This document shows positions 13,571-37,634 of a DNA stretch of 64,000 bases, piece after piece. Location of the stretch: the IMG/VR virus record IMGVR_UViG_3300031715_000003, positions 1-64,000 of that record; one strand, written 5' to 3'. A program made the position numbers and the translations under genes. Source of the DNA: a virus. A model generated the notes under the pieces. That model had not been told where the DNA came from, ran no database searches, and saw only the letters and a program-made list of their open reading frames with translations. The number at the start of each line of letters is the position of its first letter. The stretch's first letter is position 1.

Positions 13571-13750
13571 TCATCCCCCATGCTCCTCTCGATGGCACGC
13601 GCCAGCGAATCCTGTGCACAGAACCGCAAGATTGGCGATCCGGTCGTCTCGCCCTTTAGAGCGGTGCTGAATGTGGTGGCCCTCCCCGCATCCCTGGAGG
13701 TCGCGCCCGCACTTTGCGCAGCGTGGGGAATTATATACTACCGTATACAT
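13571..13750 (-). CDS. Minimal HNH endonuclease (59 aa, not in the ORF track)
   Basis: MYTVVYNSPRCAKCGRDLQGCGEGHHIQHRSKGRDDRIANLAVLCTGFAGACHREEHGG* has CxxC, HH, N and C..CH..H. It overlaps the tnpB 3' end. Confidence 0.65.
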   Translation of the reverse strand: MYTVVYNSPRCAKCGRDLQGCGEGHHIQHRSKGRDDRIANLAVLCTGFAGACHREEHGG

Positions 13751-14841
13751 TCTGAAGAACCTTTCAGTCCCGCAAGGCTCTTCCCGAGCCTAAGAACATT
13801 GATCGATGCATTATGATCGCGATCCAAGTTCGTCCCGCATTCGCAAATATGGCGCCGCTCCTTCAGCGTCTTCCGCACATCTGCACCGCAGTTTGAACAG
13901 CGGATCGATGTGCCCCTGGAGTTAACTGGTATGGCCCATCGCCCGGCACTTTCAGCCTTGTACGATATTTGCCAAATCAGTTCTCCCCATGCGGCATCGA
14001 GGATGGATTTGGCAAGTTTGCCGTGCACCATCCTAGCGATGTTCAGTTTTTCAAAAGCGATCAGGTCGTAGTTGGACACCAACCACTTGCTGACATGATG
14101 GATAAAATTGCGTCTGGCGTCGGCCGCACGCTGGTGCGCACGACGTAATGCCTCTTTGGCGCGGACACGGTTGTTTGACCGCTTTTTCTTTAGCGCTAGA
14201 CGCCGATTTGCCGCCGCGATCTTAGCCTCATGCTTGCGCGTCCAGCGCGGATTATCTATCGAGCGTCCATCGGAAAGAGTCACGAAATTGATTAATCCGA
14301 CATCAATACCGACGGCGCTTGACACCACGACCTTTTCTGGTGCGGCCCCGATATCGCAGCACAGGCTGATTTGCCACCGTTCACCGCGGCGCTTAACTGT
14401 GGCCGTGCGCGGTGTGCCGATAATCAACTGGCTCGACTTGAATTTGAACCAGCCCAGATCTGGAATCCTAATTTTGTTGTCAAGTATCCGCACCTTGCCG
14501 AACAGGAATGAATTGTAACGATGTCTCGAACGGAATCGTGGAAACCCCGGATTTTCACCGCGCTTGCAGCGACGGAAGAAATTCTTAAAGGCTCGCTCTA
14601 GCCGACGTAGGGGCTCCCGCTGAATGTCCACTGCAATCCTGGCGAACTGTGAATCTTTGCGTAGTTCCGTAAGTTCGGCCTGTTGGTCGTAAAGTCCGAT
14701 GTGCTTTCGCTCTAGCTTCCATGCTTCCTTGCGTTCCTGGAGTGCTGCATTGTAGGTCTCCGCGCTATCGCGAAGGATGTCCTCGAAAGCAGCAAGTTGA
14801 GCTTGGTTCGGTCGGAGGCGAAGTGTGTACGTCCGGAACAT
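13738..14841 (-). CDS. tnpB: RNA-guided endonuclease TnpB (IS200/IS605 OrfB family)
   Basis: N-terminus YTLRLRPN, PGFPRFR, RuvC-I GIDVG, RuvC-II IAFEKL, zinc ribbon CSNCG..CECG and RuvC-III DRDHNAS. ATG at 14841. Confidence 0.92.
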   Translation of the reverse strand: MFRTYTLRLRPNQAQLAAFEDILRDSAETYNAALQERKEAWKLERKHIGLYDQQAELTELRKDSQFARIAVDIQREPLRRLERAFKNFFRRCKRGENPGFPRFRSRHRYNSFLFGKVRILDNKIRIPDLGWFKFKSSQLIIGTPRTATVKRRGERWQISLCCDIGAAPEKVVVSSAVGIDVGLINFVTLSDGRSIDNPRWTRKHEAKIAAANRRLALKKKRSNNRVRAKEALRRAHQRAADARRNFIHHVSKWLVSNYDLIAFEKLNIARMVHGKLAKSILDAAWGELIWQISYKAESAGRWAIPVNSRGTSIRCSNCGADVRKTLKERRHICECGTNLDRDHNASINVLRLGKSLAGLKGSSECIR

Positions 14842-14845
14842 GAAA

Positions 14846-15208
14846 CTAATCTCTACGCTCCTGGGTCGATTGGTAGCGGGCATAATGCTCCTCCGCTAAT
14901 TGCTTCATGTTGACCACGTATCGTTTCTCAAATGCTTTTCGTCCGGCGTCGTATTCGCGATGGTAGGCGCGTTCCAGGGGAACGCACGAGGAATCTGGTC
15001 CTTTGCTTCCCATCCCGTTGTTTTGCGTATGAGCGGGATCAATTATCGCTCGCCTCCAAAGCCCACTCCCGGAAACTATCCAAGTATCCCCCTTTATCCC
15101 GGATACGACGCATGGTTGCTCGCAGCACCATTGTCGATAACCGACGTCTCTCATCGGCCCGCGACGAGGTTTCGCGCGCTTCTGCGGAATCCGGCTGCGG
15201 ACCTTCAT
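14846..15208 (-). CDS. DUF968-like putative His-Me finger nuclease
   Basis: YRQW..QPCVVSG, DPAH, GMGSKGPD..VPL...HRE motif pattern. Confidence 0.6.
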   Translation of the reverse strand: MKVRSRIPQKRAKPRRGPMRDVGYRQWCCEQPCVVSGIKGDTWIVSGSGLWRRAIIDPAHTQNNGMGSKGPDSSCVPLERAYHREYDAGRKAFEKRYVVNMKQLAEEHYARYQSTQERRD

Positions 15209-17772: not shown

Positions 17773-19293
17773 CTATGCGGGGAACTCGCGGACGCGGAGA
17801 TTGCTCGGAAAATCTTCTATGTGGCCGCCCTTGCTGTCACTCATGATCCACGGATCTTCTCCGTCAAAACAGTTGGAGCCGCCCTGTTTCATGAAAAAGC
17901 TGGTACCTGCGGTGCGGCATTGATCGCGCACGGCCTCGGCCCATTCCCAATGGAAAGGGCGAGCGCCGGGCCCGCTCTCCCCTCCTACGATTACTTGCGA
18001 AATTCCGCGCAGGTCCAATTCGCCGATGTCCTCCAATAGCGGCTCAATCGAAAGGAATCGGATGGCGGCTGGGGTCTCCCGAAGTACATCAATGCGATCC
18101 TTGCGCGCTTGATCCTCCACGGAGCACCCCGCCCAGCAATTTACGAGCGGCCATTCTATCGGCGCGTCCATATTGCCTTGACGTCCCCGTGCGATATTCC
18201 TAACCTGCGTCGCAGAGACTCCAAAATGATGGGCCAGGGCTTCGCCAGTCTCTCCTCGGGAATGCCTGCGCCTGATCTCGGATACGTCACTCTCGGTTAG
18301 TTTCGAATAGCGGCGATGGTTTCCGTGGCGTTTACTGTCCTCCCAGTTATCGCCTTGAGTACCCCAGCGCAAATTGGCGATGTGGTTATTGGTAGCGTTG
18401 CCGTCCCTATGGCAACCCTGCTCCTCGGCGACGGCAGGCCGATCAAATGCAGTTAGAACCAATCGATGAACCAGTTCTCTATACTGAACGCCATCCTTGT
18501 AAAGCATAACCCTCTGATGGCCCTGATCGCCCTCGTCGGGCGACATTCGTACCAACTTACCAGCAAATCGTGGTTCGTGCCCGACGCGCCGGTGATAGCA
18601 AGCGTTTTGCTTACATTGCTTGCTGCAGTATGATTTAGTTGCGATTCCATCGACTGGCTTACCGCAATATAAACATTCGGAACTGCCATGAGAACTAAGC
18701 ACAAATCCAAGGTTCGAAATGAAATATCCAGGATAGGATTCGATTGGCCTAATCTCTTCCGTTACATGCGTCATTTCCTGAGCGACAGATACGACATCCA
18801 TCTGCTTGGCGATTCTAAAAGGCGTGCGGACCTCTGAGCAATATGTCAGCATCCTACCGGGCCGCTTTGTTAGCACTTGAAACGTGTGCTGAGGACATAG
18901 CGCCATAACCGCGAAAATCCGGTCTATCGCTTCATCTGGCAGCGCTTCGTGGAATAGATCCGACATCGAATTGACGAAGATGCGGCAGGGCTTGCACCAG
19001 TGAAGCGGTTCCATGAGCTTGGATTCGATCAGTTCTACTTTGCCTGTCCACTGAGGATGACCGTTGGCGATGCGGACAAAGCCGTTGAACTTTCCAGCCT
19101 TCTGGATCTTCCCAAATAAATCACCATCTCCTGGGGGTTCGTAATCTGGGGCTTGTGAAAAGCGCGCTGCGATGCGTTCTGCATAACAGTGAACGCAGCC
19201 GGGAGAAACTCGGCTACAACCACGGGTCGGGTTCCACGTTTTACCTTCCGACCCATCTTCCCCGCGCGTCCATTCGATGCTAGTCTTTCCCAT
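17773..19293 (-). CDS. Phage Gp37/Gp68 (DUF5131) protein carrying an in-frame HNH endonuclease
   Basis: IEWT..TWNPTRGCSRVSPGCVHCYA, FVNSMSDLFH, LTKRP, RFLSIEPLL, VIVGGESG.GARP, FFMKQ. Confidence 0.88.
   Translation of the reverse strand: MGKTSIEWTRGEDGSEGKTWNPTRGCSRVSPGCVHCYAERIAARFSQAPDYEPPGDGDLFGKIQKAGKFNGFVRIANGHPQWTGKVELIESKLMEPLHWCKPCRIFVNSMSDLFHEALPDEAIDRIFAVMALCPQHTFQVLTKRPGRMLTYCSEVRTPFRIAKQMDVVSVAQEMTHVTEEIRPIESYPGYFISNLGFVLSSHGSSECLYCGKPVDGIATKSYCSKQCKQNACYHRRVGHEPRFAGKLVRMSPDEGDQGHQRVMLYKDGVQYRELVHRLVLTAFDRPAVAEEQGCHRDGNATNNHIANLRWGTQGDNWEDSKRHGNHRRYSKLTESDVSEIRRRHSRGETGEALAHHFGVSATQVRNIARGRQGNMDAPIEWPLVNCWAGCSVEDQARKDRIDVLRETPAAIRFLSIEPLLEDIGELDLRGISQVIVGGESGPGARPFHWEWAEAVRDQCRTAGTSFFMKQGGSNCFDGEDPWIMSDSKGGHIEDFPSNLRVREFPA
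18170..18760 (-). mobile_element. NUMOD4-HNH-HTH homing endonuclease region inserted in frame (approximate bounds)
   Basis: EEIRPIESYPGYFISNLG (NUMOD4), VHRLVLTAF..CHRDGNATNNHIANLRWGT..DN (HNH) and KLTESDV..LAHHFGVS (HTH). Confidence 0.8.
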
Positions 19294-25615: not shown

Positions 25616-26476
25616 CGGCCTCTACCGTGGCCTGACGTGCGCGTCCACGTCGGCGCATCTCTGCCAGCACCATCGGGATGATGCGATAGAGGCGCGCGCG
25701 GCCTTGCGTTTCCTCTCTGAGATCGTGCTGGCAGAGCCCCAACCTATTGAAGGCCCGCTCTGCGTCCACCGCTCCAGGTAAGAGCCTAGCCTCAGTATAG
25801 TGGTTGGACGTACCGCAACCATCAAACCCTGCCCTAAGGGAATGGTCAGCCGTGACGATTCCTATGAAGCAGCAGCAGGAATTGAAATGTAGCCGTCCGC
25901 TGCGTGCGTGTGCCAGTAGCCACGTAAGCCGCTCATCAGTGTAAATGTACTCCCCGTCAGCATGGCGCTGCTGCATAAAGGCGCGAAGTATCTGCTTCTG
26001 CTCTCGTAGCCATTCTCGTCGAGTTGTCATCATCATTCGGTCGGTCATATTATGCTTTTCTGTGTACTTGTCGTGGATCTAGACGCTTTGTGTTGCTTAG
26101 TGCAAATCGGGCAGACTTCGCGTCTTGGGCTGACGCATGCTCGGCAACGTGGGCATATCCATCCGACTTCTTGGCCTGCTATCGTCTCCAGTTTTGCTCC
26201 GCATCTTGTGCAAAACTTGGGAACGTACGGTAGCCGTAGGGAACTAGATTTACCGCAGCGCTGACACGGGTATTCTACGAAGTCTCGTTCATTACTCATA
26301 ATTTAGGTTCTCCTATTGTGCCGTTTCCTGTGTCATCCGCAATGCCTCCACGACTTGGGAAGCGTCTAATACGAGAGCATCGCCAGTCATCGCGATAAGT
26401 CTTTCGGTGCTGATGTCTGGCTCGGCGGCCTCTATCTCGTCCCACTTGGCCCGCACGCGTTCGGCAGTCTTCAATT

Positions 26477-29132: not shown

Positions 29133-30130
29133 CGGGGGAGTTCCTTTTCTAGTAGCTTGACCACACCTCTCATAACATCGCTGATGTGGCACATCGTGAG
29201 GATAAATAATACCATCATCATGAACGCAAGCAAAGTGAACGCTAAGGACGTGTCTGATGGTGTCGTGCAAGTATCCGCATTGGAGAGGAGTATTAAAAGG
29301 GACATGCATCTTCCTCCAGTGGTTGCGGCACCCGCACCGCGACGTTGATAGTGTCCATTCTCGTGCTCCCATCTTCGTTCACGCAAAATGAACACGCGGG
29401 ATCGGAATCCTCGACGTAGCAGCGGTTAGGCGTCTCGTCACCTTCCCAGTGACCGCCTCGAAGCTGCGCTGGTTCTCCCCCGGTGCGCCCGCAGTTGGGA
29501 CACGGCTTGGGCACTCCGCAAAAGTTGCACAGACCTCCGGTACTGACTTCGGCACCGCAGCGATAACAGACTACATTTACCGGAACTTGGGGCTGGTGTA
29601 CGCCAGCCCCTTCCGCCACGACAAGTTCGGCCGGCGTTCGCGCGTACAGTGTTTCCGGCACCCCTGCCGCAGAACTTTGTGCCGAGCCCGCACTTATGGA
29701 GGAAGAAGTTGCGGGCCCGGCCGTACAGGGGAGAGCGCACTCCCCTGAAGTCGCTTCCCGCAGAGCATCCGCCACCTTTTCGGCTAGGTGGCCGTACGGG
29801 AGAAATAGTTGCACAGAATCGCCGTGTTTCCCCGTGATATAGACAGCGGAGAACGGATGGTTGCAATCCGGGAAGTGGGTTACGGTGATGTCCGCAGCGT
29901 CCACGTTGAGGTACACATTGGTCGAAGTCATGCGCAGCACCTCGCAAATACTATTTGCTCCGTCATGAGGGCAGCCTTAGCCATTGCGCTGGCCGCATCC
30001 GTTGGGATTCCTTCGGCAATGGCCTGAAGTACTTCTATGTGAAGATCGTCCGCGAGAGAATGCGCGATTTCGTCGTCGTGTTTCTTTTTCCGGATCTCCT
30101 CTACGGCTTTTTCTATTTCTTCTAGCGTAA

Positions 30131-30319
30131 TCATGGTTTTGTCTCCTGGACGGCAGGAGCGCACTCCCCTCGGTGATGTCGCGGCTTATTCTTCTCAGCG
30201 AACTCCTTAGTGTACTTGCCGCAGGGACAGCGCTCCGTCCGTCTTTTTCGTCCTGGTCTCTTCCGTAGGGAGGCCAGATACCGAGCGGCCTCGCTACGTT
30301 TTTGCTTTTTCGTCATCAC
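30131..30319 (-). CDS. Small basic protein directly behind a promoter (candidate regulator)
   Basis: K/R-rich 62 aa with CPCG and a nearly leaderless start. Confidence 0.5.
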   Translation of the reverse strand: MMTKKQKRSEAARYLASLRKRPGRKRRTERCPCGKYTKEFAEKNKPRHHRGECAPAVQETKP

Positions 30320-30326
30320 GTTCCTT

Positions 30327-30362
30327 AGATAACATATCGCTTTTTTATCCGCTAGTCAAGAT
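30327..30362 (-). promoter_or_regulatory. Early promoter copy 2
   Basis: TTGACT-17-TATGTT with spacer GCGGATAAAAAAGCG shared with the promoter at 36.33 kb. Confidence 0.75.
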
Positions 30363-31297
30363 GGGATACGCTTTTATTTTTTGTCCCCGACTGGCGTTTC
30401 TGGTTGCCACCATTGGATGCTCTGGATGGAGTCGATCTGAAGTAGTCTCCGGGGATTGGTTCCGTTAAGAGCTTCTGAGATCAGCGTGCCCGCTGCTTCG
30501 AGTTCGCTAATGTACGAAATCGCCTTTGCGTCCGATAGCGCATCGAAAGCCAAATAGATTCCGCGCATTTGGTCAACGCAAGTGGTGAAGATTTTCATTC
30601 CGTGCTCTTCTCGGGGAGAACCCTTTCGGATCTCTTGTTCGTGCGGATCTTCTCCAGTGCGGCCATGGCGTATTCGGCACCCGCATGGAAGGCGTCGTTG
30701 AGGATATCGGCTTCGTGCTCTGCGTCGTCCAGGGACTCGTAGGACGTGCTCCCGCAGATTCCATCGGGACGGCGCACCATCCATGACTTACCCGCGCCAC
30801 AATGCTTGCATCCGGGTTTATCCACAACAACGGTATAGGGCTGTCTCATTTCATCGGACTCCTCTCCATCTGAATCTCGTTTCGTGCGGCGCAGAGCCGC
30901 GTGTACACGGGGAGTTCCGCGCCGTCTCCGGGTTGGTACTCCCCGCAAATCTCCGTGAACAGCGCATCGCTTCCACTCAACCACTCGAGATGCTGGCGAA
31001 TCTCTTGAAACCGTTCTCCCCAGCTCGAAACAGCGTATTGCAGAACCCCGGTTGTGGGCTTGCGCTGGCGGGGAGAACGGGCCTGACGGACAACGGGCTC
31101 CCTCCAGCGCTTGCGCTTGGCATCCCATACGGGCTCGGGGCGGATACTGGGGTCCAGGATGCTGGCCAGCCGCCAATCCGCAGTCCACCACTCGCGCGCC
31201 TTCTTGTCCCAACGGAAGCCAGCGGATTTGACTTGTGCGTTTTGAGACATCGATGCGCACGCCACGTAGCGTTCTCCCCGGTGGATTACGGGAATCA

Positions 31298-31939
31298 TCA
31301 CCCGATTGTCAGGAGTGCGGGATTCAGTACGCCGCCGCTTTCGTTGGCCTTCTCTCCCTCTGTTCCGATCTGGGTCTTTAAGTTGTGCCAACGACGAAGG
31401 GCTTCCCCATGAATCCAACATTTTGCCAGCATTGCGACAGCGGCCCCGAACATAAATCCGGTGATACCCTCGTCGTCCGCAATGTGCGATGCGTCGTTCG
31501 CACAATTCTCCAAAGTGTCGCCGTTGGAGATTCTCGCTTCCATTAAGCGCGCCCATTTATCGGCGTAGCGAACCACTCCAGATCCGTAAGGATCGGTGTT
31601 TTTGGCGACCCAGGAAGCCCATAATTCGGGATCGCGCAACGTCAACGTGCCCGGTGCTGTCAATAGCGCTCCTTTTAAAGCGGCATCCTTGCGGCGCTGG
31701 TCCTCCTCATACTGGCGCTGTTGCTCTGCGTATTCCGGCGAAGCCAACCATTTCTGGTGGCGTGTGTCGGACTCAGAGTCGTAAAAATTGACGATCTTGT
31801 CCACGGTATCACCGGGCCAAGCTGTCAGTTCTATATCATTGAATTTAGTGGTGACGGCGCTTTTGGACTCATCCGCAAGCGCGATTATGGCTTCGGCGCA
31901 TTCGCGTATATGCTGGCCTGCCTTTGATTCGTAAGTCAT
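31298..31939 (-). CDS. Hypothetical phage protein
   Basis: AAGGAG SD; 213 aa; DDEGITGFMFGAAV..L..CW.HGE.LRRWHN. Confidence 0.65.
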   Translation of the reverse strand: MTYESKAGQHIRECAEAIIALADESKSAVTTKFNDIELTAWPGDTVDKIVNFYDSESDTRHQKWLASPEYAEQQRQYEEDQRRKDAALKGALLTAPGTLTLRDPELWASWVAKNTDPYGSGVVRYADKWARLMEARISNGDTLENCANDASHIADDEGITGFMFGAAVAMLAKCWIHGEALRRWHNLKTQIGTEGEKANESGGVLNPALLTIG

Positions 31940-32153
31940 TCAATTCTCCTTTTTTTCTGAGCAAATTCGCTCGCTAGTGGCGTCCCACAGGAGAGCCGTC
32001 TCCCCCGAGATTGGTCTCCCCCAAAGGAACGCCCTAAGCGCGAGAATCAGCCCTACTGTCCTCGCAAGCCTGTTGGCGGGTAGCACACGGCCATGAGCCG
32101 GCGCTCCACGCGGCGCCGGATGCGCCACACGCGGATCTTACGCAATATCCACT

Positions 32154-32567
32154 TCATAGTTTCCCTCCTTTCCGCAGGTTTAGTGCGAATCGAGCGCGCT
32201 TGCCGATTGCGCCGGGGAGTTTGGCCGCGGCGCGAAGTTTTCGTGCGGGGAGTTCGCTTCCGGCCGGAACTCCCAAATCGCGATGAAGCTGGCCCGGCGT
32301 CAACTTCGACGAAGCAACCTTGCGGAGCCACTCGCGCGCTACTTCGGACTCCTCGGAGCCGTCATCGTAACCGACTCGCCTGAAGACGTTCGCGCTTGCG
32401 AACCCACCGTACATGCGCGCATTCCACGCGGTGACTGCGGCCTTGGGTGTGGCCGCCACAATCATGGCGGGGCATCCCGAGCACCTGACTCCACCACAGG
32501 TCGCGACGCTGCGGATACGTTTGGCCTCACTGCCGCAAAACGGACACGGCAGAAGTTTGGTCTTCAT
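32154..32567 (-). CDS. Lar-like (restriction alleviation) zinc domain fused to a basic domain homologous to ORF 48926-49108
   Basis: LLPCPFCGS...VRCSGC...AAVTAWNAR, then GQLHRDLGVP.G..LPARKL.AAAK..G.IGKRAR.A. Confidence 0.65.
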   Translation of the reverse strand: MKTKLLPCPFCGSEAKRIRSVATCGGVRCSGCPAMIVAATPKAAVTAWNARMYGGFASANVFRRVGYDDGSEESEVAREWLRKVASSKLTPGQLHRDLGVPAGSELPARKLRAAAKLPGAIGKRARFALNLRKGGKL

Positions 32568-32787
32568 CGTTCTACCCTCCTTGCCGTGCGTTCCCGCCGG
32601 CGCGCAGCGGCGGCGTTCTCCGCGCCCAGCTTCCACAGTTGGTCATACGTTGCGGTGTAGGAATGCCTGGTTCCTTTGAGCCTGATGGTGATGTAGGTGG
32701 CGGCCAGCTCGATTACGATGGGTCGTATCTTGCCGCGCTCCCGCACCGATTGCAGCGTTTCGCGTTTGATGGGCTTGAGTGTGGTGG

Positions 32788-33132
32788 TCATCGCGCGCGC
32801 TCCCGTGGCTTCCAGTGCACGTCATAGAACCAGAGCGACATCAGATAGGCGCAAGCAGCTTCCTTATGCTCATGTTGCGGCTGAAACGATCGCGCAATGG
32901 CTTGAACGTGGTTGAACGCCTTCACTGTGTCGATCCCTACTTTAGGCGTGAACCTGACATCCTCTACTCCAAAGAAAAACATATCACTAAAGAAGCCATT
33001 CCAGAGCGTACGGCCGTGCTTGAACTCCTCTGGGATGGCTTCGAAGGCAGGCATGAGCGAAAACACATCCGCTGGCCCGAAGGCCATATCCAGCCCGGTT
33101 ACTTCGGTGGGAGCAGTGAAATCTGTCGTCAC
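32788..33132 (-). CDS. Hypothetical phage protein
   Basis: GGAGG SD; SFQPQHEHKEAACAYLMSLWF motif. Confidence 0.6.
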   Translation of the reverse strand: MTTDFTAPTEVTGLDMAFGPADVFSLMPAFEAIPEEFKHGRTLWNGFFSDMFFFGVEDVRFTPKVGIDTVKAFNHVQAIARSFQPQHEHKEAACAYLMSLWFYDVHWKPRERAR

Positions 33133-33647
33133 TTCGCAACCTCCTGCGGGAGTTCGCTTTCAGCCGATTCCGTTCTCCCCGTCAGCCAGAATTTATTGCC
33201 GTCTACAATTGCTTGGCAGATGATGCGGAGTCGGTCGCGAGCGGATGCCGGGCGTTCTTCCTCGAATGGCCACGGATATCTCATAGGGCTCCATCCTTCG
33301 AAGATCGCCTCGACGCGCGTTCGGCTTGCTTTGTCTAGTGGTAGACGCGGAAGATAGATGTTGTCCTCAATGTAGAGGTATCCATTGGTGCGGAAATTGA
33401 GGTCAATTGCGTCCTCCCGAATGGCTTGGGCAACGAGAAATGCCCCGAGCGCGCAGACGTGGCACTCCACGCCCGACAATGCGAGCTGCTGAAGGTCGAT
33501 AGGGCCATCGCCCTCCCATTGCTCAACCCGCACGTAACTTATTTCCGTGAGTTCGAGTTTTACCGGCCCCTTGTAGTCGTGGTCCAGGTATCGCAGCACG
33601 TCGGCTGCAAGCATTTCGATGGTCAGTGGTTGTTGTTCTTCGGACAT
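33129..33647 (-). CDS. Hypothetical early protein
   Basis: ATG follows the repeated AGGAGG element; contains CHVCALGA. Confidence 0.6.
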   Translation of the reverse strand: MSEEQQPLTIEMLAADVLRYLDHDYKGPVKLELTEISYVRVEQWEGDGPIDLQQLALSGVECHVCALGAFLVAQAIREDAIDLNFRTNGYLYIEDNIYLPRLPLDKASRTRVEAIFEGWSPMRYPWPFEEERPASARDRLRIICQAIVDGNKFWLTGRTESAESELPQEVAK

Positions 33648-33656
33648 CAGTTGTTT

Positions 33657-33726
33657 GAGCCTCCTATTGCTCACCCGAGGGGAGCACGGTCGCGGGTGTG
33701 CTCCCCTTCGGCGCGCATCAGGAAAC
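33657..33726 (-). repeat. SD-sequestering intergenic element, copy 4
   Basis: GTTTCCTGATGCGC-hairpin-GAGCAATAGGAGGCTC. Confidence 0.8.
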
Positions 33727-34068
33727 GTCTTTCACAACACGCAAAGCGACATCGTAAAGGCCAGGATTAGCGAAGTCTCCAAGATTGGCCTCGGATGAAT
33801 GCTTGTTCGTCAGATGCATTCTGGCTTCCGAGACGTGCGCGTAAACTGCGCCGGAGCCTGGCCCTTCCCGCTCAATAGTCTTATCGCGCTGGTTGACCAG
33901 CATGTGAATCCAATACGATCCGTCGGTGCAGCGCTCAATATCGATCTCCCCGCCAGGGAACTTGACTCGGAAGCTGTCGTGTTCCGGCTTGCGCGGATTG
34001 CCCTCCAATTCGACACCAACGACGCTATCCCCAAAGGATTTGATTCTCAGGTGTTCGCCTGTTTTCAT
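33718..34068 (-). CDS. Hypothetical early protein
   Basis: ATG at 34068 follows the element; its stop lies inside the next element. Confidence 0.6.
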   Translation of the reverse strand: MKTGEHLRIKSFGDSVVGVELEGNPRKPEHDSFRVKFPGGEIDIERCTDGSYWIHMLVNQRDKTIEREGPGSGAVYAHVSEARMHLTNKHSSEANLGDFANPGLYDVALRVVKDVS

Positions 34069-34075
34069 AGTTTGT

Positions 34076-34169
34076 GAGCCTCCTATTGCTCGATGGCCGC
34101 CGTCTCCGCGCGGAAAAGATAGGAGACTTGGGAATCTTGCCCCACGGCGGCCGTCGCGCACCAGGAAGC
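34076..34169 (-). repeat. SD-sequestering intergenic element, copy 3
   Basis: GCTTCCTGGTGCGC-long hairpin-GAGCAATAGGAGGCTC. Confidence 0.8.
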
Positions 34170-34694
34170 TGGCGCGCGCCCGCATTAGCCGGGTTTCATG
34201 CGATTATCCCGGCGAGTTTGTCGCGCAAGATGTCCAGGTGCAACTCGAACATCCGAACCGCTTCCTTGCGGGTCTTGAGGAGCCCAGGGCCGAACTTGCT
34301 GCGGTAGCTCCAAGTCCAGTGATAGCGGCCAACCTTGCGGATGGGATAGCCGTCGCTTCCAAAGTGGTCAACGTGCGTCAGGATGAAAGCCTCGTCCTCA
34401 TCGAGCCGTCCGGCGCTGCGGGTGACTAGTCCGCCGTAATCAGTAAAGGATTGGGGGGAGTTCATTGTCGGATCTCCTCTGTGCGGACGAAAGGGCCATT
34501 ACCGAACTCCCTGATGTTGCGGTGGGCCTCGCACCTATTGGCGCGCGATAGTCCATCGGGTGATGGGATCACGCCCAGGCCGAGCAAGGCTTGGCGGGTA
34601 CTTTCCGTTCTGGTGGTTATCAGGACGTTGGTAGCGGGGTCTCCGCATTCGTGCCCATAGGTTCCGGGAGCGGCGAACTGGCATTTGGGGGAGT

Positions 34695-34943
34695 TCATTT
34701 CTGGCCCTCTTTCTGCGCCCAAGCGTTCTTTGCTCCCTTGGTGCTTTTGCTCTTGTAGCAGATGGCGCACGGCTTCAGCTCGTGCTGTTCAGCGTCTTTG
34801 CGATCGGCGTGGAGCACGTTCTTGGTTTTGCTCAGGTGCTCGCACTGAGAAGATGCGTGGTACGTCTTCCCATTGGGCGAGAAGTACACGGTTTCGGCCA
34901 GCAGCATCCCCGAAGCCAGAACGAAAGCGATGAGCTTATTCAT
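34695..34943 (-). CDS. Small secreted metal-binding protein
   Basis: Signal peptide plus VY.SPNGKTYH...C..L...PCAIC. Confidence 0.6.
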   Translation of the reverse strand: MNKLIAFVLASGMLLAETVYFSPNGKTYHASSQCEHLSKTKNVLHADRKDAEQHELKPCAICYKSKSTKGAKNAWAQKEGQK

Positions 34944-35121
34944 TAGCGTGCTCCCCCAATGACCGTCCCCTTAACCAGTGAGGCAATGTCATGGACAACG
35001 GACGTGCGCCAAATCCAGGCCAAGCCGATATTGTCGGTCCATTCATCTCCGTCCTCCCCGCAGCGGTAGTAATGGCCGTCCTCATTGACCACAAGGAAAA
35101 GATTGTGTTTCATGCTATTTT

Positions 35122-35183
35122 GAGCCTCCTATTGCTCATTGGGGGAGCACGTTAGCGGACTCCCCCAAGGCGCACCAGGAAAC
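35122..35183 (-). repeat. SD-sequestering intergenic element, copy 2
   Basis: GTTTCCTGGTGCGC-hairpin-GAGCAATAGGAGGCTC, ahead of a 56 aa ORF (34943-35113). Confidence 0.8.
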
Positions 35184-35567
35184 AGGCTCCGAATCCCCAC
35201 CGCTCGGAGCAACACGGTTCGCACGTTCGCCTGCAGCCCGGAGACATCAGGTGCGAGCGATGTTGGGGTAATCAGGCGCATTGAGCGTAATCCACGCCGC
35301 CGAGAGGCGTCATTTTGGCGCTCGCGCGCATCACGATCTCGCCGTCCTGGTATTCCTCTGCGGTTAGATGGACGACGATGGAGCGCTCACCGGAGTCCGC
35401 ATAATCATATGAGTCAGCGAAATCCTCGAGCGCCTCAATGAGCGTGTCGCCCTCGGCCAGATCGTAGTAGTAGCCCATGACTTCATCGGCGATGCGGATC
35501 TCGCGCCCGGTGCCGGCTAGTTCGCTTTTATAGTTGTGCTGGTAAGTTCCGTTTGCCATATTTCGCC

Positions 35568-35828
35568 TCAAAGCTGAACCAGAACGCGGTTAACGTCGTT
35601 CTCGAACGTGTAGACTTGGTCGCCGTTCTCCAGACCACCTTTCATGAGCGGTCCAGCCCATCCGAACTTCCGGCAGAGCGCGATGGCGGCTCCATCGTGG
35701 GCTTTGTCGGCGCTGTCGAACTGGCTGACCTTGACGGTGACGCGGTTCTTGGGATGGCCGGTTGTGGCGGAAACCGTTGATGGTTTGGTCACGTCGGCGC
35801 CGTGGTATCGGGTAATGATTGCTTTCAT
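35568..35828 (-). CDS. Hypothetical early protein
   Basis: MKAIITRYHGA...; ATG follows the element. Confidence 0.65.
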   Translation of the reverse strand: MKAIITRYHGADVTKPSTVSATTGHPKNRVTVKVSQFDSADKAHDGAAIALCRKFGWAGPLMKGGLENGDQVYTFENDVNRVLVQL

Positions 35829-35835
35829 TTTGTGC

Positions 35836-35901
35836 GAGCCTCCTATTGCTCAGCCAGGGGAGAAGACCGAAAGCGTTCTCCCCTGAAGCGCACTAGGAAA
35901 C
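35836..35901 (-). repeat. SD-sequestering intergenic element, copy 1
   Basis: GTTTCCTAGTGCGC-hairpin-GAGCAATAGGAGGCTC. Confidence 0.8.
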
Positions 35902-36297
35902 CACAGGGTCGGAGTTGAAGGACCAGCGCAGCTCGGTCACTTTGCCACGGACAAAACAACGGCCGTCCTGATGGCCTGAACGAGTGGAGCCGCAATTCAG
36001 GCATTTTTCCAGTTGCCGATCTCCCGACATGGCTTCTTGAGCTTCCATAGTCAGAACCAAATGCGTCACTCCAGGCAGTGCGATATCGGCCATTGGGCAG
36101 AACACCGAATAGCTGGCGGCGAGTTTCGTCCACCCGTCCGTTACGCTAGCGGCATCGGTGTATTCCACAAATGCATCCAGCCCATCTAACCGGATTCGCA
36201 GTTTCACCTTAAATCCGTTCTGGTCCGGAAGAATACCGTGGCCTAGCAGCCGTGCGCGACGGCTTGTGCCTTGCTCCACAAATTCCCTCAAGTTCAT
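35893..36297 (-). CDS. First gene of the leftward (early) arm, hypothetical
   Basis: Follows the promoter and an SD-in-loop hairpin CAGGG-AAATAGGAG-CCCTG. Confidence 0.6.
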   Translation of the reverse strand: MNLREFVEQGTSRRARLLGHGILPDQNGFKVKLRIRLDGLDAFVEYTDAASVTDGWTKLAASYSVFCPMADIALPGVTHLVLTMEAQEAMSGDRQLEKCLNCGSTRSGHQDGRCFVRGKVTELRWSFNSDPVVS

Positions 36298-36325
36298 TGT
36301 TTCCAGGGCTCCTATTTCCCTGTGG

Positions 36326-36362
36326 AGATAAGATACCGCTTTTTTATCCGCAGTGTCAAGAT
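36326..36362 (-). promoter_or_regulatory. Early promoter copy 1
   Basis: TTGACA-18-TATCTT with spacer GCGGATAAAAAAGCG and an A/T-rich UP tract. Confidence 0.8.
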
Positions 36363-36429
36363 TTATTTTTGTTCTCCCCGCAAGTTTCAGAAAATGCTAC
36401 CATAAAACCGAAAGCGTTCTCCCCTTAGT

Positions 36430-37044
36430 ATGTTGGTAGCACCAGAAAACGGGCGCATTCGAGGCAAGCGAGACATCCTCAGCAACCCAGAGCGGAAATT
36501 CGCGGATGCCATTGCTCAGGGCAAATCGAAAGAGGACGCCCTCGCAGCCGCTGGCTACAGTTCCAAGTGCGGTAAATCCCAAGCCTGGAAACTCCTTTCG
36601 CGCAAGCGCGTGATCGACCGCATTGCGGAAACCAACATCGAAATTGCCCGCCAAGTGGCCGTCTACAGCGCGCGCTCCCTTAGCGAGATCCCAAACTTGG
36701 CTGAAGTCACCCTGAATAGAACCCGTATCGTGTCTTTCCTTGTGGTGGTGGCTCAGGAAGCAAGAAAAGCCGGGCAGTATGCATCAGCGATAACTGGAAT
36801 GGTTCAAGCGGCTAAAGTTTCTGGCGCTTATGTTGAGCGAACAGAGCAAGCTGTTGAGTTTCAACTGCTTGAGAAGGCAGCGGCGGGCAACATGAGCGAG
36901 TTGACGGATGATCAGGTGGAGCGGATGACGCGGGCGCTGGAAGTGATGGCGTGGGGCTCGGATAGAGCACGCATCGAAGCCGAAAGACGGAAACAAGGCA
37001 TCATAGAAGCCAGCGCGGAAGCCGTTGAAACGAAAGATAGTTAG
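36430..37044 (+). CDS. terS: Terminase small subunit
   Basis: LSNPERKFA...G.S..DA..AAGYS....QAWKLL...V..RI N-terminal HTH, and ELTDDQV in the C-terminus. Confidence 0.7.
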   Translation: MLVAPENGRIRGKRDILSNPERKFADAIAQGKSKEDALAAAGYSSKCGKSQAWKLLSRKRVIDRIAETNIEIARQVAVYSARSLSEIPNLAEVTLNRTRIVSFLVVVAQEARKAGQYASAITGMVQAAKVSGAYVERTEQAVEFQLLEKAAAGNMSELTDDQVERMTRALEVMAWGSDRARIEAERRKQGIIEASAEAVETKDS

Positions 37045-37455
37045 ATTTCCTACGAACAATTACCTTATTTCCTTGTATAATAGGCTGCATGAGAAGCCAT
37101 TTGTTACAAGAAACTCTGCCAGAGATCAAGAAGCGCGGACGCCCACAGCGTATTGTTCGATGCGACTGTGGCGACCGAATGCCCTCGTTCGAGTTCCAGC
37201 ACCACTATTCAGGCTGCGATGCGTTCTGGAAAAAGCACGGCGCCGTGGAGACGGATCAGGATATTTCGGTTCGTTGTTACGTGAAGCACGGAGTCAGCCT
37301 GATGAAGTGGTGCGAGGAGAACGTTGAAGGCTGGTCCAGCGCCTCATGGCAGGAGAAAGAGGAGGTTCTGGAAGCTGAGCACGCGCGGATCGATGAGATT
37401 CAGTTCTCGTTGTGAGCCGGCTTGGATCGCGCGGCGGGCCTGGCTTCCGGCTTCG

Positions 37456-37523
37456 GCCCCTCCCTTCCTTCCCGACCACCCCACCCCACAGTACCCTCGC
37501 CCCCCCCACCCCCCACCCCCCCC
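37456..37523. other. C-rich tract (G-quadruplex-capable on the - strand)
   Basis: Successive C runs of 3-8 nt in non-coding DNA after terS. Confidence 0.6.
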
Positions 37524-37604
37524 TTCGATTTAATTCACCGATCAGCACGAAGTTGATTCTGGAAAGAAGGCCACCGGCCTAAGAATCAACGATATAAAAT
37601 ATAG

Positions 37605-37634
37605 TTGACACCGTGCTCAGTGCCGATGTAAACT
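37605..37634 (+). promoter_or_regulatory. Rightward sigma70-like promoter
   Basis: TTGACA-18-TAAACT, with ATG 7 nt downstream (leaderless). Confidence 0.7.

Follow-up and report, generated by a model that had tools for sequence, protein, structure and literature searches.

Four intercistronic RNA elements predicted to mask early-gene ribosome-binding sites in a phage resemble the RNase III sites of T7

Introduction

The early operon of phage T7, which is transcribed by the host polymerase, carries several RNase III sites (R0.3, R0.5, R1, R1.1 and R1.3). Cleavage by RNase III can also expose a ribosome-binding site that is otherwise occluded, as in the N leader of phage lambda. Occlusion until RNase III cleavage has likewise been documented for Escherichia coli adhE and for lambda cIII (PMC5371410). 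An idealised E. coli RNase III substrate comprises 22 bp; where the target contains mismatches or loops, cleavage of a single strand is favoured, which leaves a stabilising 3′ hairpin (PMC3867540). In T4-type phages, promoter-early stem-loops (PeSLs) combine a strong sigma70-like promoter with a terminating stem-loop, and recombination between repeated intergenic cassettes has been documented (PMC2839356). Furthermore, the Shine–Dalgarno (SD) sequences of the T4 genes e, soc, 49 and I-TevI are masked on long transcripts, and a late internal promoter relieves the masking (PMC3014915).

Here, we describe an RNA element that occurs four times in the early operon of an uncultured phage. The window analysed is a stretch of 64,000 nucleotides, positions 1 to 64,000 of the IMG/VR virus record IMGVR_UViG_3300031715_000003 (94,224 bp). 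The elements look like a compact version of the T7 RNase III sites and not like a new type of switch.

Results

Repeat family

The minus strand carries four exact copies of a 16-nt box, GAGCAATAGGAGGCTC, at 33657, 34076, 35122 and 35836; the chance expectation is 0.47 matches with up to three mismatches allowed. The box includes an SD sequence, and each is partnered by an upstream arm of 12–14 nt. The 5′ arm TTCCTRRTGCGC was found in exactly four perfect copies, at 33713, 34156, 35170 and 35888. The spacing between arm and box is variable (32–64 nt), and the whole module measures 62–94 nt. The four copies are laid out as follows.

Copy A, 35836–35901, minus strand: 5′ arm 35888–35901, upper hairpin 35852–35887, 3′ box 35836–35851
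Copy B, 35122–35183, minus strand: 5′ arm 35170–35183, upper hairpin 35138–35169, 3′ box 35122–35137
Copy C, 34076–34169, minus strand: 5′ arm 34156–34169, branched upper part 34092–34155, 3′ box 34076–34091
Copy D, 33657–33726, minus strand: 5′ arm 33713–33726, upper hairpin 33673–33712, 3′ box 33657–33672

The boxes of copies A to D end 7, 8, 7 and 9 nt before ATG codons at 35828, 35113, 34068 and 33647, respectively. The exact counts of arms and boxes agree with the original prediction of four minus-strand copies of arm, hairpin and SD box, and the distances with its placing of an ATG 7–9 nt past each box. No further box was present in the whole 94,224-bp record at up to one mismatch. A covariance-model search, which had been suggested together with that prediction, was seeded with the four copies; it recovered those four only from the whole genome and revealed no fifth, diverged copy. 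The ribosome-binding site at 26316 resembles the box and has neither arm nor hairpin, and it was not counted as a further copy.

Organisation of the early operon

A single sigma70-like promoter precedes the early polycistron that contains all four elements, and the gene map places them between cistrons. On the minus strand, no other promoter-like site and no terminator-like site was detected down to approximately 30360. The features of the operon that concern the elements are listed below.

36330–36359, minus strand: sigma70-like early promoter of the leftward operon (TTGACA, 18-nt spacer, TATCTT; 10/12 consensus matches)
36304–36322, minus strand: gene-1 leader hairpin (5-bp stem, SD in a 9-nt loop; −5.7 kcal/mol)
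35893–36297, minus strand: gene 1, 134 aa, ORFan; TAG stop inside the 5′ arm of copy A
35568–35828, minus strand: gene 2, 86 aa; start served by copy A
34943–35113, minus strand: gene 4, 56 aa; start served by copy B
33718–34068, minus strand: gene 8, 116 aa; served by copy C; TGA stop inside the 5′ arm of copy D
33129–33647, minus strand: gene 9, 172 aa, ORFan; served by copy D

As had been proposed, an upstream stop codon falls within the 5′ arm of two copies. The TAG of gene 1 (35895–35893) and the TGA of gene 8 (33720–33718) occupy the same position within the arms of copies A and D, respectively. Copies B and C have TGG instead of a stop codon at that position, and no annotated gene ends in their 5′ arms. 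The strongest SDs in the region are those of the locked genes, and gene 1, the first gene, is the only one of the set with an unlocked SD. Its leader hairpin begins approximately 1 nt past the predicted transcription start.

The repeats flank ORFans, in which neither unusual composition nor paralogy was seen. Domain searches of genes 1–10 brought up neither an RNA-binding nor a nuclease domain, the fold of gene 1 was poorly predicted, and the ESM Atlas gave nothing informative for it. A phage-encoded RNase III is absent.

Predicted fold and its alternative

Folding revealed a common architecture in all four copies. The 5′ arm pairs with the SD in an 8-bp lower stem, two conserved 1×1 purine mismatches, the second of them G/A, flank a 3-bp step near the middle of the helix, and a variable hairpin forms the top. 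This long stem, which hides the SD, was the minimum-free-energy fold of every isolated copy, with z-scores against shuffled sequences of −3.4 to −5.5. Copies A, B and D reached −35.6, −36.0 and −43.7 kcal/mol with 26, 24 and 25 stacked pairs, and their SDs were paired with p ≥ 0.98, ≥ 0.99 and ≥ 0.97, respectively. Copy C reached −51.0 kcal/mol in isolation and comprises 21 stacked pairs followed by a three-way junction. These helices have the length of about 20–22 bp or more, or two A-form turns, expected of an RNase III substrate. When 40 nt of upstream context were included, a competing partner for the 5′ arm of copy C appeared and SD pairing dropped to p = 0.39, so that the pairing probability in this copy spans 0.39–1.0.

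When the 5′ arm was removed or held single-stranded, all four copies refolded to a small hairpin whose loop displays the SD. The original prediction had described a two-state element in which a long stem with purine mismatches conceals the SD and a local hairpin displays it. Both folds were predicted for all four copies; free switching between them did not hold up, since the closed form is favoured over the open form by 11–17 kcal/mol. At this difference an active opener would be needed, and on the modelled energies the element is a lock that an outside event, either cleavage or a ribosome, would open, not an equilibrium switch. The gene-1 leader, which had been assigned the same design, does fold in this way at 36304–36322: its loop is the loop of the 3′ box, and the letters of its stem differ.

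Conservation and covariation

The arm, the box and the purine mismatches are conserved in sequence, whereas the upper hairpins are completely divergent and could not be aligned with one another. Each of them is nevertheless stable (z −2.4 to −5.4) and borders directly on the conserved arms. The only piece shared between arm and box is a motif dispersed over the genome, on both strands and also within genes.

The 3′ arm is invariant across the four copies. No compensatory covariation was detected among them, and at the only two paired positions that vary, the change is confined to one side; with a 3′ arm this uniform, the covariation test has no power here. Nearly every nucleotide of the box has a dual pairing role, which explains much of its invariance. 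The exact conservation of 16 nt exceeds what pairing alone requires, and a sequence-specific protein or gene conversion may be the cause instead.

Searches for relatives

Rfam gave no match in the whole window at gathering thresholds, and at E ≤ 1 the segment 33500–36450 gave one chance-level match only, outside the elements. Similarly, a nucleotide search of the 4-kb region against 50,697 phage records returned no match. The exact 16-mer occurs in IMG/VR as 36 single-copy matches, which were rejected as relatives as none has the 5′ arm and hairpin; apart from one distant capsid match, those 36 records share no proteins with this phage. A gapped arm-plus-box pattern gave 10 matches in IMG/VR and 94 in GTDB genomes, in every case singly, in unrelated taxa and without full boxes.

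Protein queries gave a comparable picture. Genes 1 and 9 and the portal protein identified no close relatives in IMG/VR, and genes 1 and 9 had no match among cultured phages (tblastn). The portal is only ~32% identical to P22-like portals. Gene 10 belongs to a wide family, whose closest homologue (65% identity) lies on a 66-kb contig. None of 151 gene-10 family loci is syntenic with this operon, and the covariance model found no match in the 97 of them over which it was run. One family locus (L089) has a repeated SD box of a different, terminator-plus-SD design and was set aside. A genome-wide scan for hairpins with an SD in the loop was too noisy for use.

Discussion

We propose, with moderate confidence, that the elements are T7-style processing signals for host RNase III that also mask an SD, with unmasking by ribosomes possible in copies A and D. 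As transcribed, the SDs of genes 2, 4, 8 and 9 would be locked by the lower stem, in which they pair with the upstream arm. Each element would form a helix of approximately two turns, with a conserved lower stem, a mismatched middle and a stable variable top. By analogy with the five T7 early sites, host RNase III would most likely cut this helix near its mismatched middle; since the phage encodes no such enzyme, that of the host is assumed. This would leave the upstream message with a protective hairpin at its 3′ end. The downstream message would begin at or near the 3′ box and refold so that a small 5′ hairpin displays the SD in its loop. The processed 5′ end would take the same form as the primary 5′ end ahead of gene 1. 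A ribosome halted at the stop codon within the 5′ arm of copy A or D may also unmask the SD, and coupling and processing may act together there. We infer the cleavage, the enzyme and the effect on translation from the repeats, their position, their fold, its energetics and the refolding observed here.

The proposal has to be weighed against translational coupling without any cleavage, in which a ribosome on the upstream frame melts the 5′ arm and frees the SD, so that genes 2, 4, 8 and 9 would be made only in step with upstream translation. The shared position of the gene 1 and gene 8 stops in the arms of copies A and D suits such coupling, as does the release of the SD in every copy whose 5′ arm is held single-stranded. 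Frames that could serve it also exist at the other two copies: at copy B, a 50-codon frame runs from 7 nt before the gene 3 stop through the element to a TAG in the 3′ box, and at copy C, a frame from an ATG at 34185 crosses the element in frame with gene 8. However, both through-frames are unannotated and lack an SD, the copy B frame is atypical (GC2 0.57), and the arms of B and C have TGG where a stop would be expected. These copies keep the full structure without an annotated gene end in the arm, which suggests that the structure is not only a coupling device. Moreover, a helix of 24–26 bp and −36 to −51 kcal/mol far exceeds what masking needs, and coupling does not explain the conserved mismatch geometry. 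We thus regard coupling alone as unlikely. It is less probable again that the elements are operators for a sequence-specific RNA-binding protein, either an early phage product such as that of gene 1 or a host factor, whose opening, stabilising or cleaving of all four would make them a small regulon. The conservation of box, arm and mismatches beneath diverging hairpin tops, the restriction of the elements to four genes of one operon, and the position of gene 1 as first and not locked would all fit an operator, but neither an RNA-binding nor a nuclease domain was found in genes 1–10, gene 1 is an ORFan whose fold is poorly predicted, and dual pairing largely explains the invariance of the box. 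A bolder version, in which the product of the first gene or of another early ORFan opens or cleaves the mismatch-bearing helix, making the elements a phage-run translational regulon and not simple host RNase III sites, appears slightly more doubtful still; if true, the four locked genes would be released in a timed step after infection.

Two further explanations were considered. The repeats might act as DNA, either as repressor operators or ‘stoperators’ or as homology patches for gene shuffling in the manner of PeSLs. The box is partly palindromic, with 4-bp inverted ends around an 8-bp centre, a similar palindrome lies at +1 of the early promoter, the repeat-flanked genes are ORFans, and cassette recombination has precedent in T4-type phages (PMC2839356). 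Nevertheless, every copy is on the transcribed strand and coincides exactly with a ribosome-binding site, and an arm complementary to the box at a variable 32–64 nt fits a stem in RNA, not a site in DNA. The arms of the palindrome near the promoter differ in sequence, promoter and terminator are both missing, which sets the elements apart from PeSLs, and the flanked genes show neither compositional oddity nor paralogy, so that a DNA-level role is very improbable. An internal promoter, through which long early transcripts would be locked and later ones starting between arm and box translated, is the most improbable explanation considered. Such control is documented in T4 (PMC3014915), and transcripts from the box onward would resemble the gene-1 leader, but no sigma70-like promoter occurs in the elements and the sequence from arm to box is not conserved.

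If the reading as masked RNase III sites is right, the elements would open no new category of regulation. [quoted passage not shown] The operon would then provide a natural test of how RNase III cleavage, 3′- and 5′-hairpin capping and SD display contribute to early-gene expression. The module would also offer a compact intercistronic insulator part for synthetic operons.

Among the known systems, the suggested analogy with PeSLs failed. The elements share with PeSLs the form of repeated intergenic cassettes among small early ORFans and a G-run/C-run stem-loop. However, membership was rejected, as both the promoter in the cassette and the terminator stem-loop are missing: no sigma70-like promoter or terminator-like T run lies in or beside the elements, no hairpin is followed by a T run, and the minus strand contains no terminator-like match from 30000 to 36300. 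The resemblance to T4 e, soc, 49 and I-TevI lies in an upstream complementary arm that sequesters the SD on long transcripts; those genes have a late promoter inside the structure, whereas no internal promoter was found here.

The analogy with the T7 RNase III sites was upheld for layout when R0.3–R1.3 were folded with the same tool. In both phages, several copies occupy one early operon transcribed by the host polymerase, paired conserved flanks enclose an irregular middle and a variable top over approximately two helical turns, and the structure stands directly before the start codon of the next gene. The resemblance is one of design only, as no conserved letters are in common. Conservation in T7 falls on the base of the upper stem, and the SD lies downstream of the helix, whereas in this phage the conserved part is the lower stem, with the SD as its 3′ strand; the T7 irregularity is an asymmetric internal loop, whereas here it consists of two 1×1 purine mismatches. 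Unlike in T7, the upstream stop codon can fall inside the helix, and cleavage in this phage is a prediction. With adhE and cIII, the elements share an SD buried in a long, plausible RNase III substrate, from which loss of one strand frees the SD. Those are single leaders of single genes, whereas this phage uses one standard module four times between cistrons.

Organization of the elements in the early operon

The virus record (94,224 bp, rated 98% complete, with the window as its first 64 kb) encodes a P22-like portal (~32% identity), a large terminase and a major head protein on the plus strand, and a helicase, a primosomal protein, an HNH endonuclease and a transposase on the minus strand, with divergent transcription from ~36300-36430. 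A sigma70-like promoter with 10/12 consensus matches was located at 36359-36330 (minus strand). Because no further promoter-like or terminator-like site was detected on this strand over ~6 kb past this single promoter, the following four elements were regarded as intercistronic signals within one early message.

35836-35901, minus strand: element A, box at 35836, ATG of gene 2 at 35828
35122-35183, minus strand: element B, box at 35122, ATG of gene 4 at 35113
34076-34169, minus strand: element C, box at 34076, ATG of gene 8 at 34068
33657-33726, minus strand: element D, box at 33657, ATG of gene 9 at 33647

Each element comprises a 14-nt 5' arm, a variable upper hairpin and a 16-nt 3' box containing the Shine-Dalgarno (SD) sequence. 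The 16-nt box occurs in exactly four copies, all on the minus strand, and no fifth copy with one mismatch or fewer was present in the whole 94,224-bp record; the chance expectation is 0.47 matches even with three mismatches allowed. Likewise, the 12-nt core of the 5' arm is perfectly matched at exactly four sites, one lying 32-64 nt upstream of each box, and the box-to-ATG distance is 7-9 nt. Genes 1 (TAG) and 8 (TGA) have their stop codons at an identical position within the arms of A and D, respectively, where B and C have TGG. These results bore out all descriptive statements of the original prediction, namely four boxes, four arms, the ATG spacing and stop codons in two arms. The nine genes around the elements are ORFans in Pfam and nearly so in PHROGs, and show neither mutual paralogy nor odd composition.

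On the plus strand, a C-rich low-complexity tract of ~90 nt (37440-37530), in which C runs are interrupted by A or T, sits between the end of the ORF at 37089-37415 and a promoter-like site at 37605. In addition, the replication gene block contains the following two features.

13738-14883, minus strand: IS200/IS605-type transposase homologue (phrog_506, E 3e-96)
17773-19293, minus strand: 506-aa HNH-endonuclease-containing protein

Two unannotated frames run across elements B and C.

35129-35281, minus strand: 50-codon frame through element B, beginning 7 nt before the gene 3 stop and ending at a TAG within the 3' box
34068-34185, minus strand: 39-codon N-terminal extension of gene 8 through element C, from an in-frame ATG at 34185

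The latter stays open because the base preceding the box is C in copy C alone and T in the other copies, which removes a TGA. Since neither frame has an SD and the composition of the B frame is unusual, both are treated as no more than candidate translated frames.

Predicted closed and open states of the elements

Each copy was folded from the first base of the arm to the last base of the box, and one minimum-free-energy architecture was common to all four. In the predicted lower stem, 8 bp join the arm to the SD hexamer and adjacent bases; above it come a 1x1 purine/A mismatch, a 3-bp step, a 1x1 G/A mismatch, a C-G pair and the variable upper part. Stacked pairs number 26 in A, 24 in B, 25 in D and 21 in C, where a three-way junction follows, and the lower stem is lengthened in copy-specific ways by flanking bases that are not conserved. 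The folding energies of A, B, C and D are -35.6, -36.0, -51.0 and -43.7 kcal/mol, with z-scores of -3.4 to -5.5 against dinucleotide shuffles. The upper hairpins cannot be aligned among copies, and each is stable alone (z -2.4 to -5.4). In A, B and D, the SD hexamer has a pairing probability of at least 0.97 whether or not 40 nt of upstream context are included. For copy C this probability is 1.0 alone and 0.39 in context, because an upstream GC-rich stretch competes for the arm.

A 10-nt motif (GGGGAG, two free bases, CG) was found 81 times in the window versus 3.8 expected, on both strands and both within and between genes. It ranges from 12219 to 63016 and on to ~87 kb of the record, with none in the first 12 kb; relaxed to 9 nt (GGGGAG, two free bases, C), it is present 160 times in the 94-kb record. 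In B and D the upper hairpin is built of inverted pairs of this motif, in A of one motif opposite a degenerate partner, and two more copies (36371, 36416) flank the early promoter.

The 3' arm is invariant across the four paralogous copies. Two variable paired positions of the 5' arm still pair through one-sided changes (U-G to C-G and G-U to A-U), and the third is a mismatch that is a purine in every copy. Pairing was therefore trivially 100%, beyond which shuffle and slide controls could not tell it from chance. Because the 3' arm never varies, covariation across the four copies has no power and speaks neither for nor against the stem.

When the 14-nt arm was held single-stranded, all four copies refolded into the upper hairpin and a 4-5-bp local hairpin with the SD in its loop; RNA starting at the box folded likewise, leaving the SD unpaired. 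The closed state does not require the final four bases of the box; their invariance is explained by the local hairpin. The second state of the proposed two-state element was thus recovered by constrained refolding, but equilibrium switching was not upheld, as the closed form is favoured by 11.4, 12.0, 16.6 and 14.6 kcal/mol in the four copies. Therefore, the elements behave in these folds as a lock that something external must open, for example cleavage or ribosome occupancy of the arm.

Moreover, the gene 1 leader, folded from its predicted start (~36323), forms a 5-bp hairpin with a near-identical SD-bearing loop and different stem letters, in agreement with the design foreseen for it. As folded, this leader is one compensated instance that supports the local hairpin, and it shows the form of an unlocked 5' end in the operon.

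Search for relatives

Among cultured phages, nucleotide and protein searches turned up no match apart from distant ones to the portal. Hits of exact and gapped patterns in IMG/VR and in 185,579 species genomes were scattered and single, none of them containing the full element, and no Rfam family matched. Genes 1 and 9 and the portal retrieved no close kin from IMG/VR; a search of 5.8 billion proteins recovered one homologue of gene 1, an identical protein encoded by a near-twin assembly that, at 94,252 bp, exceeds the present record by 28 bp. Gene 10 has a widespread family of homologues, the best of which (65% identical) lies on a 66-kb contig. None of the 151 loci fetched via gene 10 was syntenic with the early operon, and R1, a covariance model built from the four copies, had no match in 97 of them.

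An identical 16-nt box was observed at one gene junction in a family of related viral contigs from IMG/VR (fetched loci L005, L007, L008, L011, L013, L015, L017-L019, L023-L026, L029, L031, L034 and L037). There it directly follows a GTTTCC-containing stretch and lies 0-1 nt before the ATG, with no hairpin in between the stretch and the box and no proteins in common with the phage. This box probably reflects convergence on a strong SD context.

Proposed mechanism and alternatives

Taken together, the elements are likely RNA-level intercistronic structures that mask the SD. In the complete model, to which we give even chances, host RNase III would cleave close to the mismatches in the middle of the helix, giving an upstream message capped by a 3' hairpin and a downstream message with an SD-display hairpin at its 5' end, resembling that of gene 1. 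At A and D, ribosomes would add to the unmasking: one that stops at the end of gene 1 or gene 8 would sit on the arm and leave the SD of gene 2 or gene 9 free.

Such coupling could also operate without any cleavage, an explanation we consider unlikely. Although no annotated gene ends in the arms of B and C, both retain the full helix; moreover, the helix is much longer than masking requires and the mismatch geometry is conserved, and processing is favoured over coupling alone for these reasons. Control by a specific RNA-binding protein acting on the elements appears less likely still, and roles of the repeats at the DNA level are improbable. Unmasking of the SD by an internal promoter, none of which was found, is the most doubtful of these explanations.

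Comparison with known systems

The five T7 early sites were folded with the same tool, at positions set by cleavage coordinates that we take to be correct, as the T7 record does not mark these sites. At these assumed positions, several copies lie in one host-transcribed early operon with conserved pairing flanks, an irregular middle and a variable top, and four of the five precede the next start by 25-35 nt. The expected likeness to T7 early RNase III sites therefore holds in design, with no sequence in common. In contrast to T7, the conserved lower stem has the SD itself as its 3' strand, and its 5' strand can include the upstream stop codon. No RNase III gene was found in the phage.

The idealised E. 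coli RNase III substrate is 22 bp; where the target contains mismatches or loops, cleavage of a single strand is favoured and a stabilising 3' hairpin remains (PMC3867540). Ribosome-binding sites occluded until RNase III cleavage are described for adhE and lambda cIII (PMC5371410). By analogy, the elements would unite these substrate rules with such occlusion. Promoter-early stem-loops (PeSL) of T4-type phages are defined by a strong sigma70-like promoter and a terminating stem-loop (PMC2839356); this suggested analogy failed, as the elements have neither a promoter-like nor a terminator-like site. Masking in T4 e, soc, 49 and I-TevI needs an internal promoter (PMC3014915), none of which was found in the present elements. 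The elements thus represent a novel sequence family and a compact version of an established design, a case that is neat, experimentally tractable and unsurprising to the specialist.
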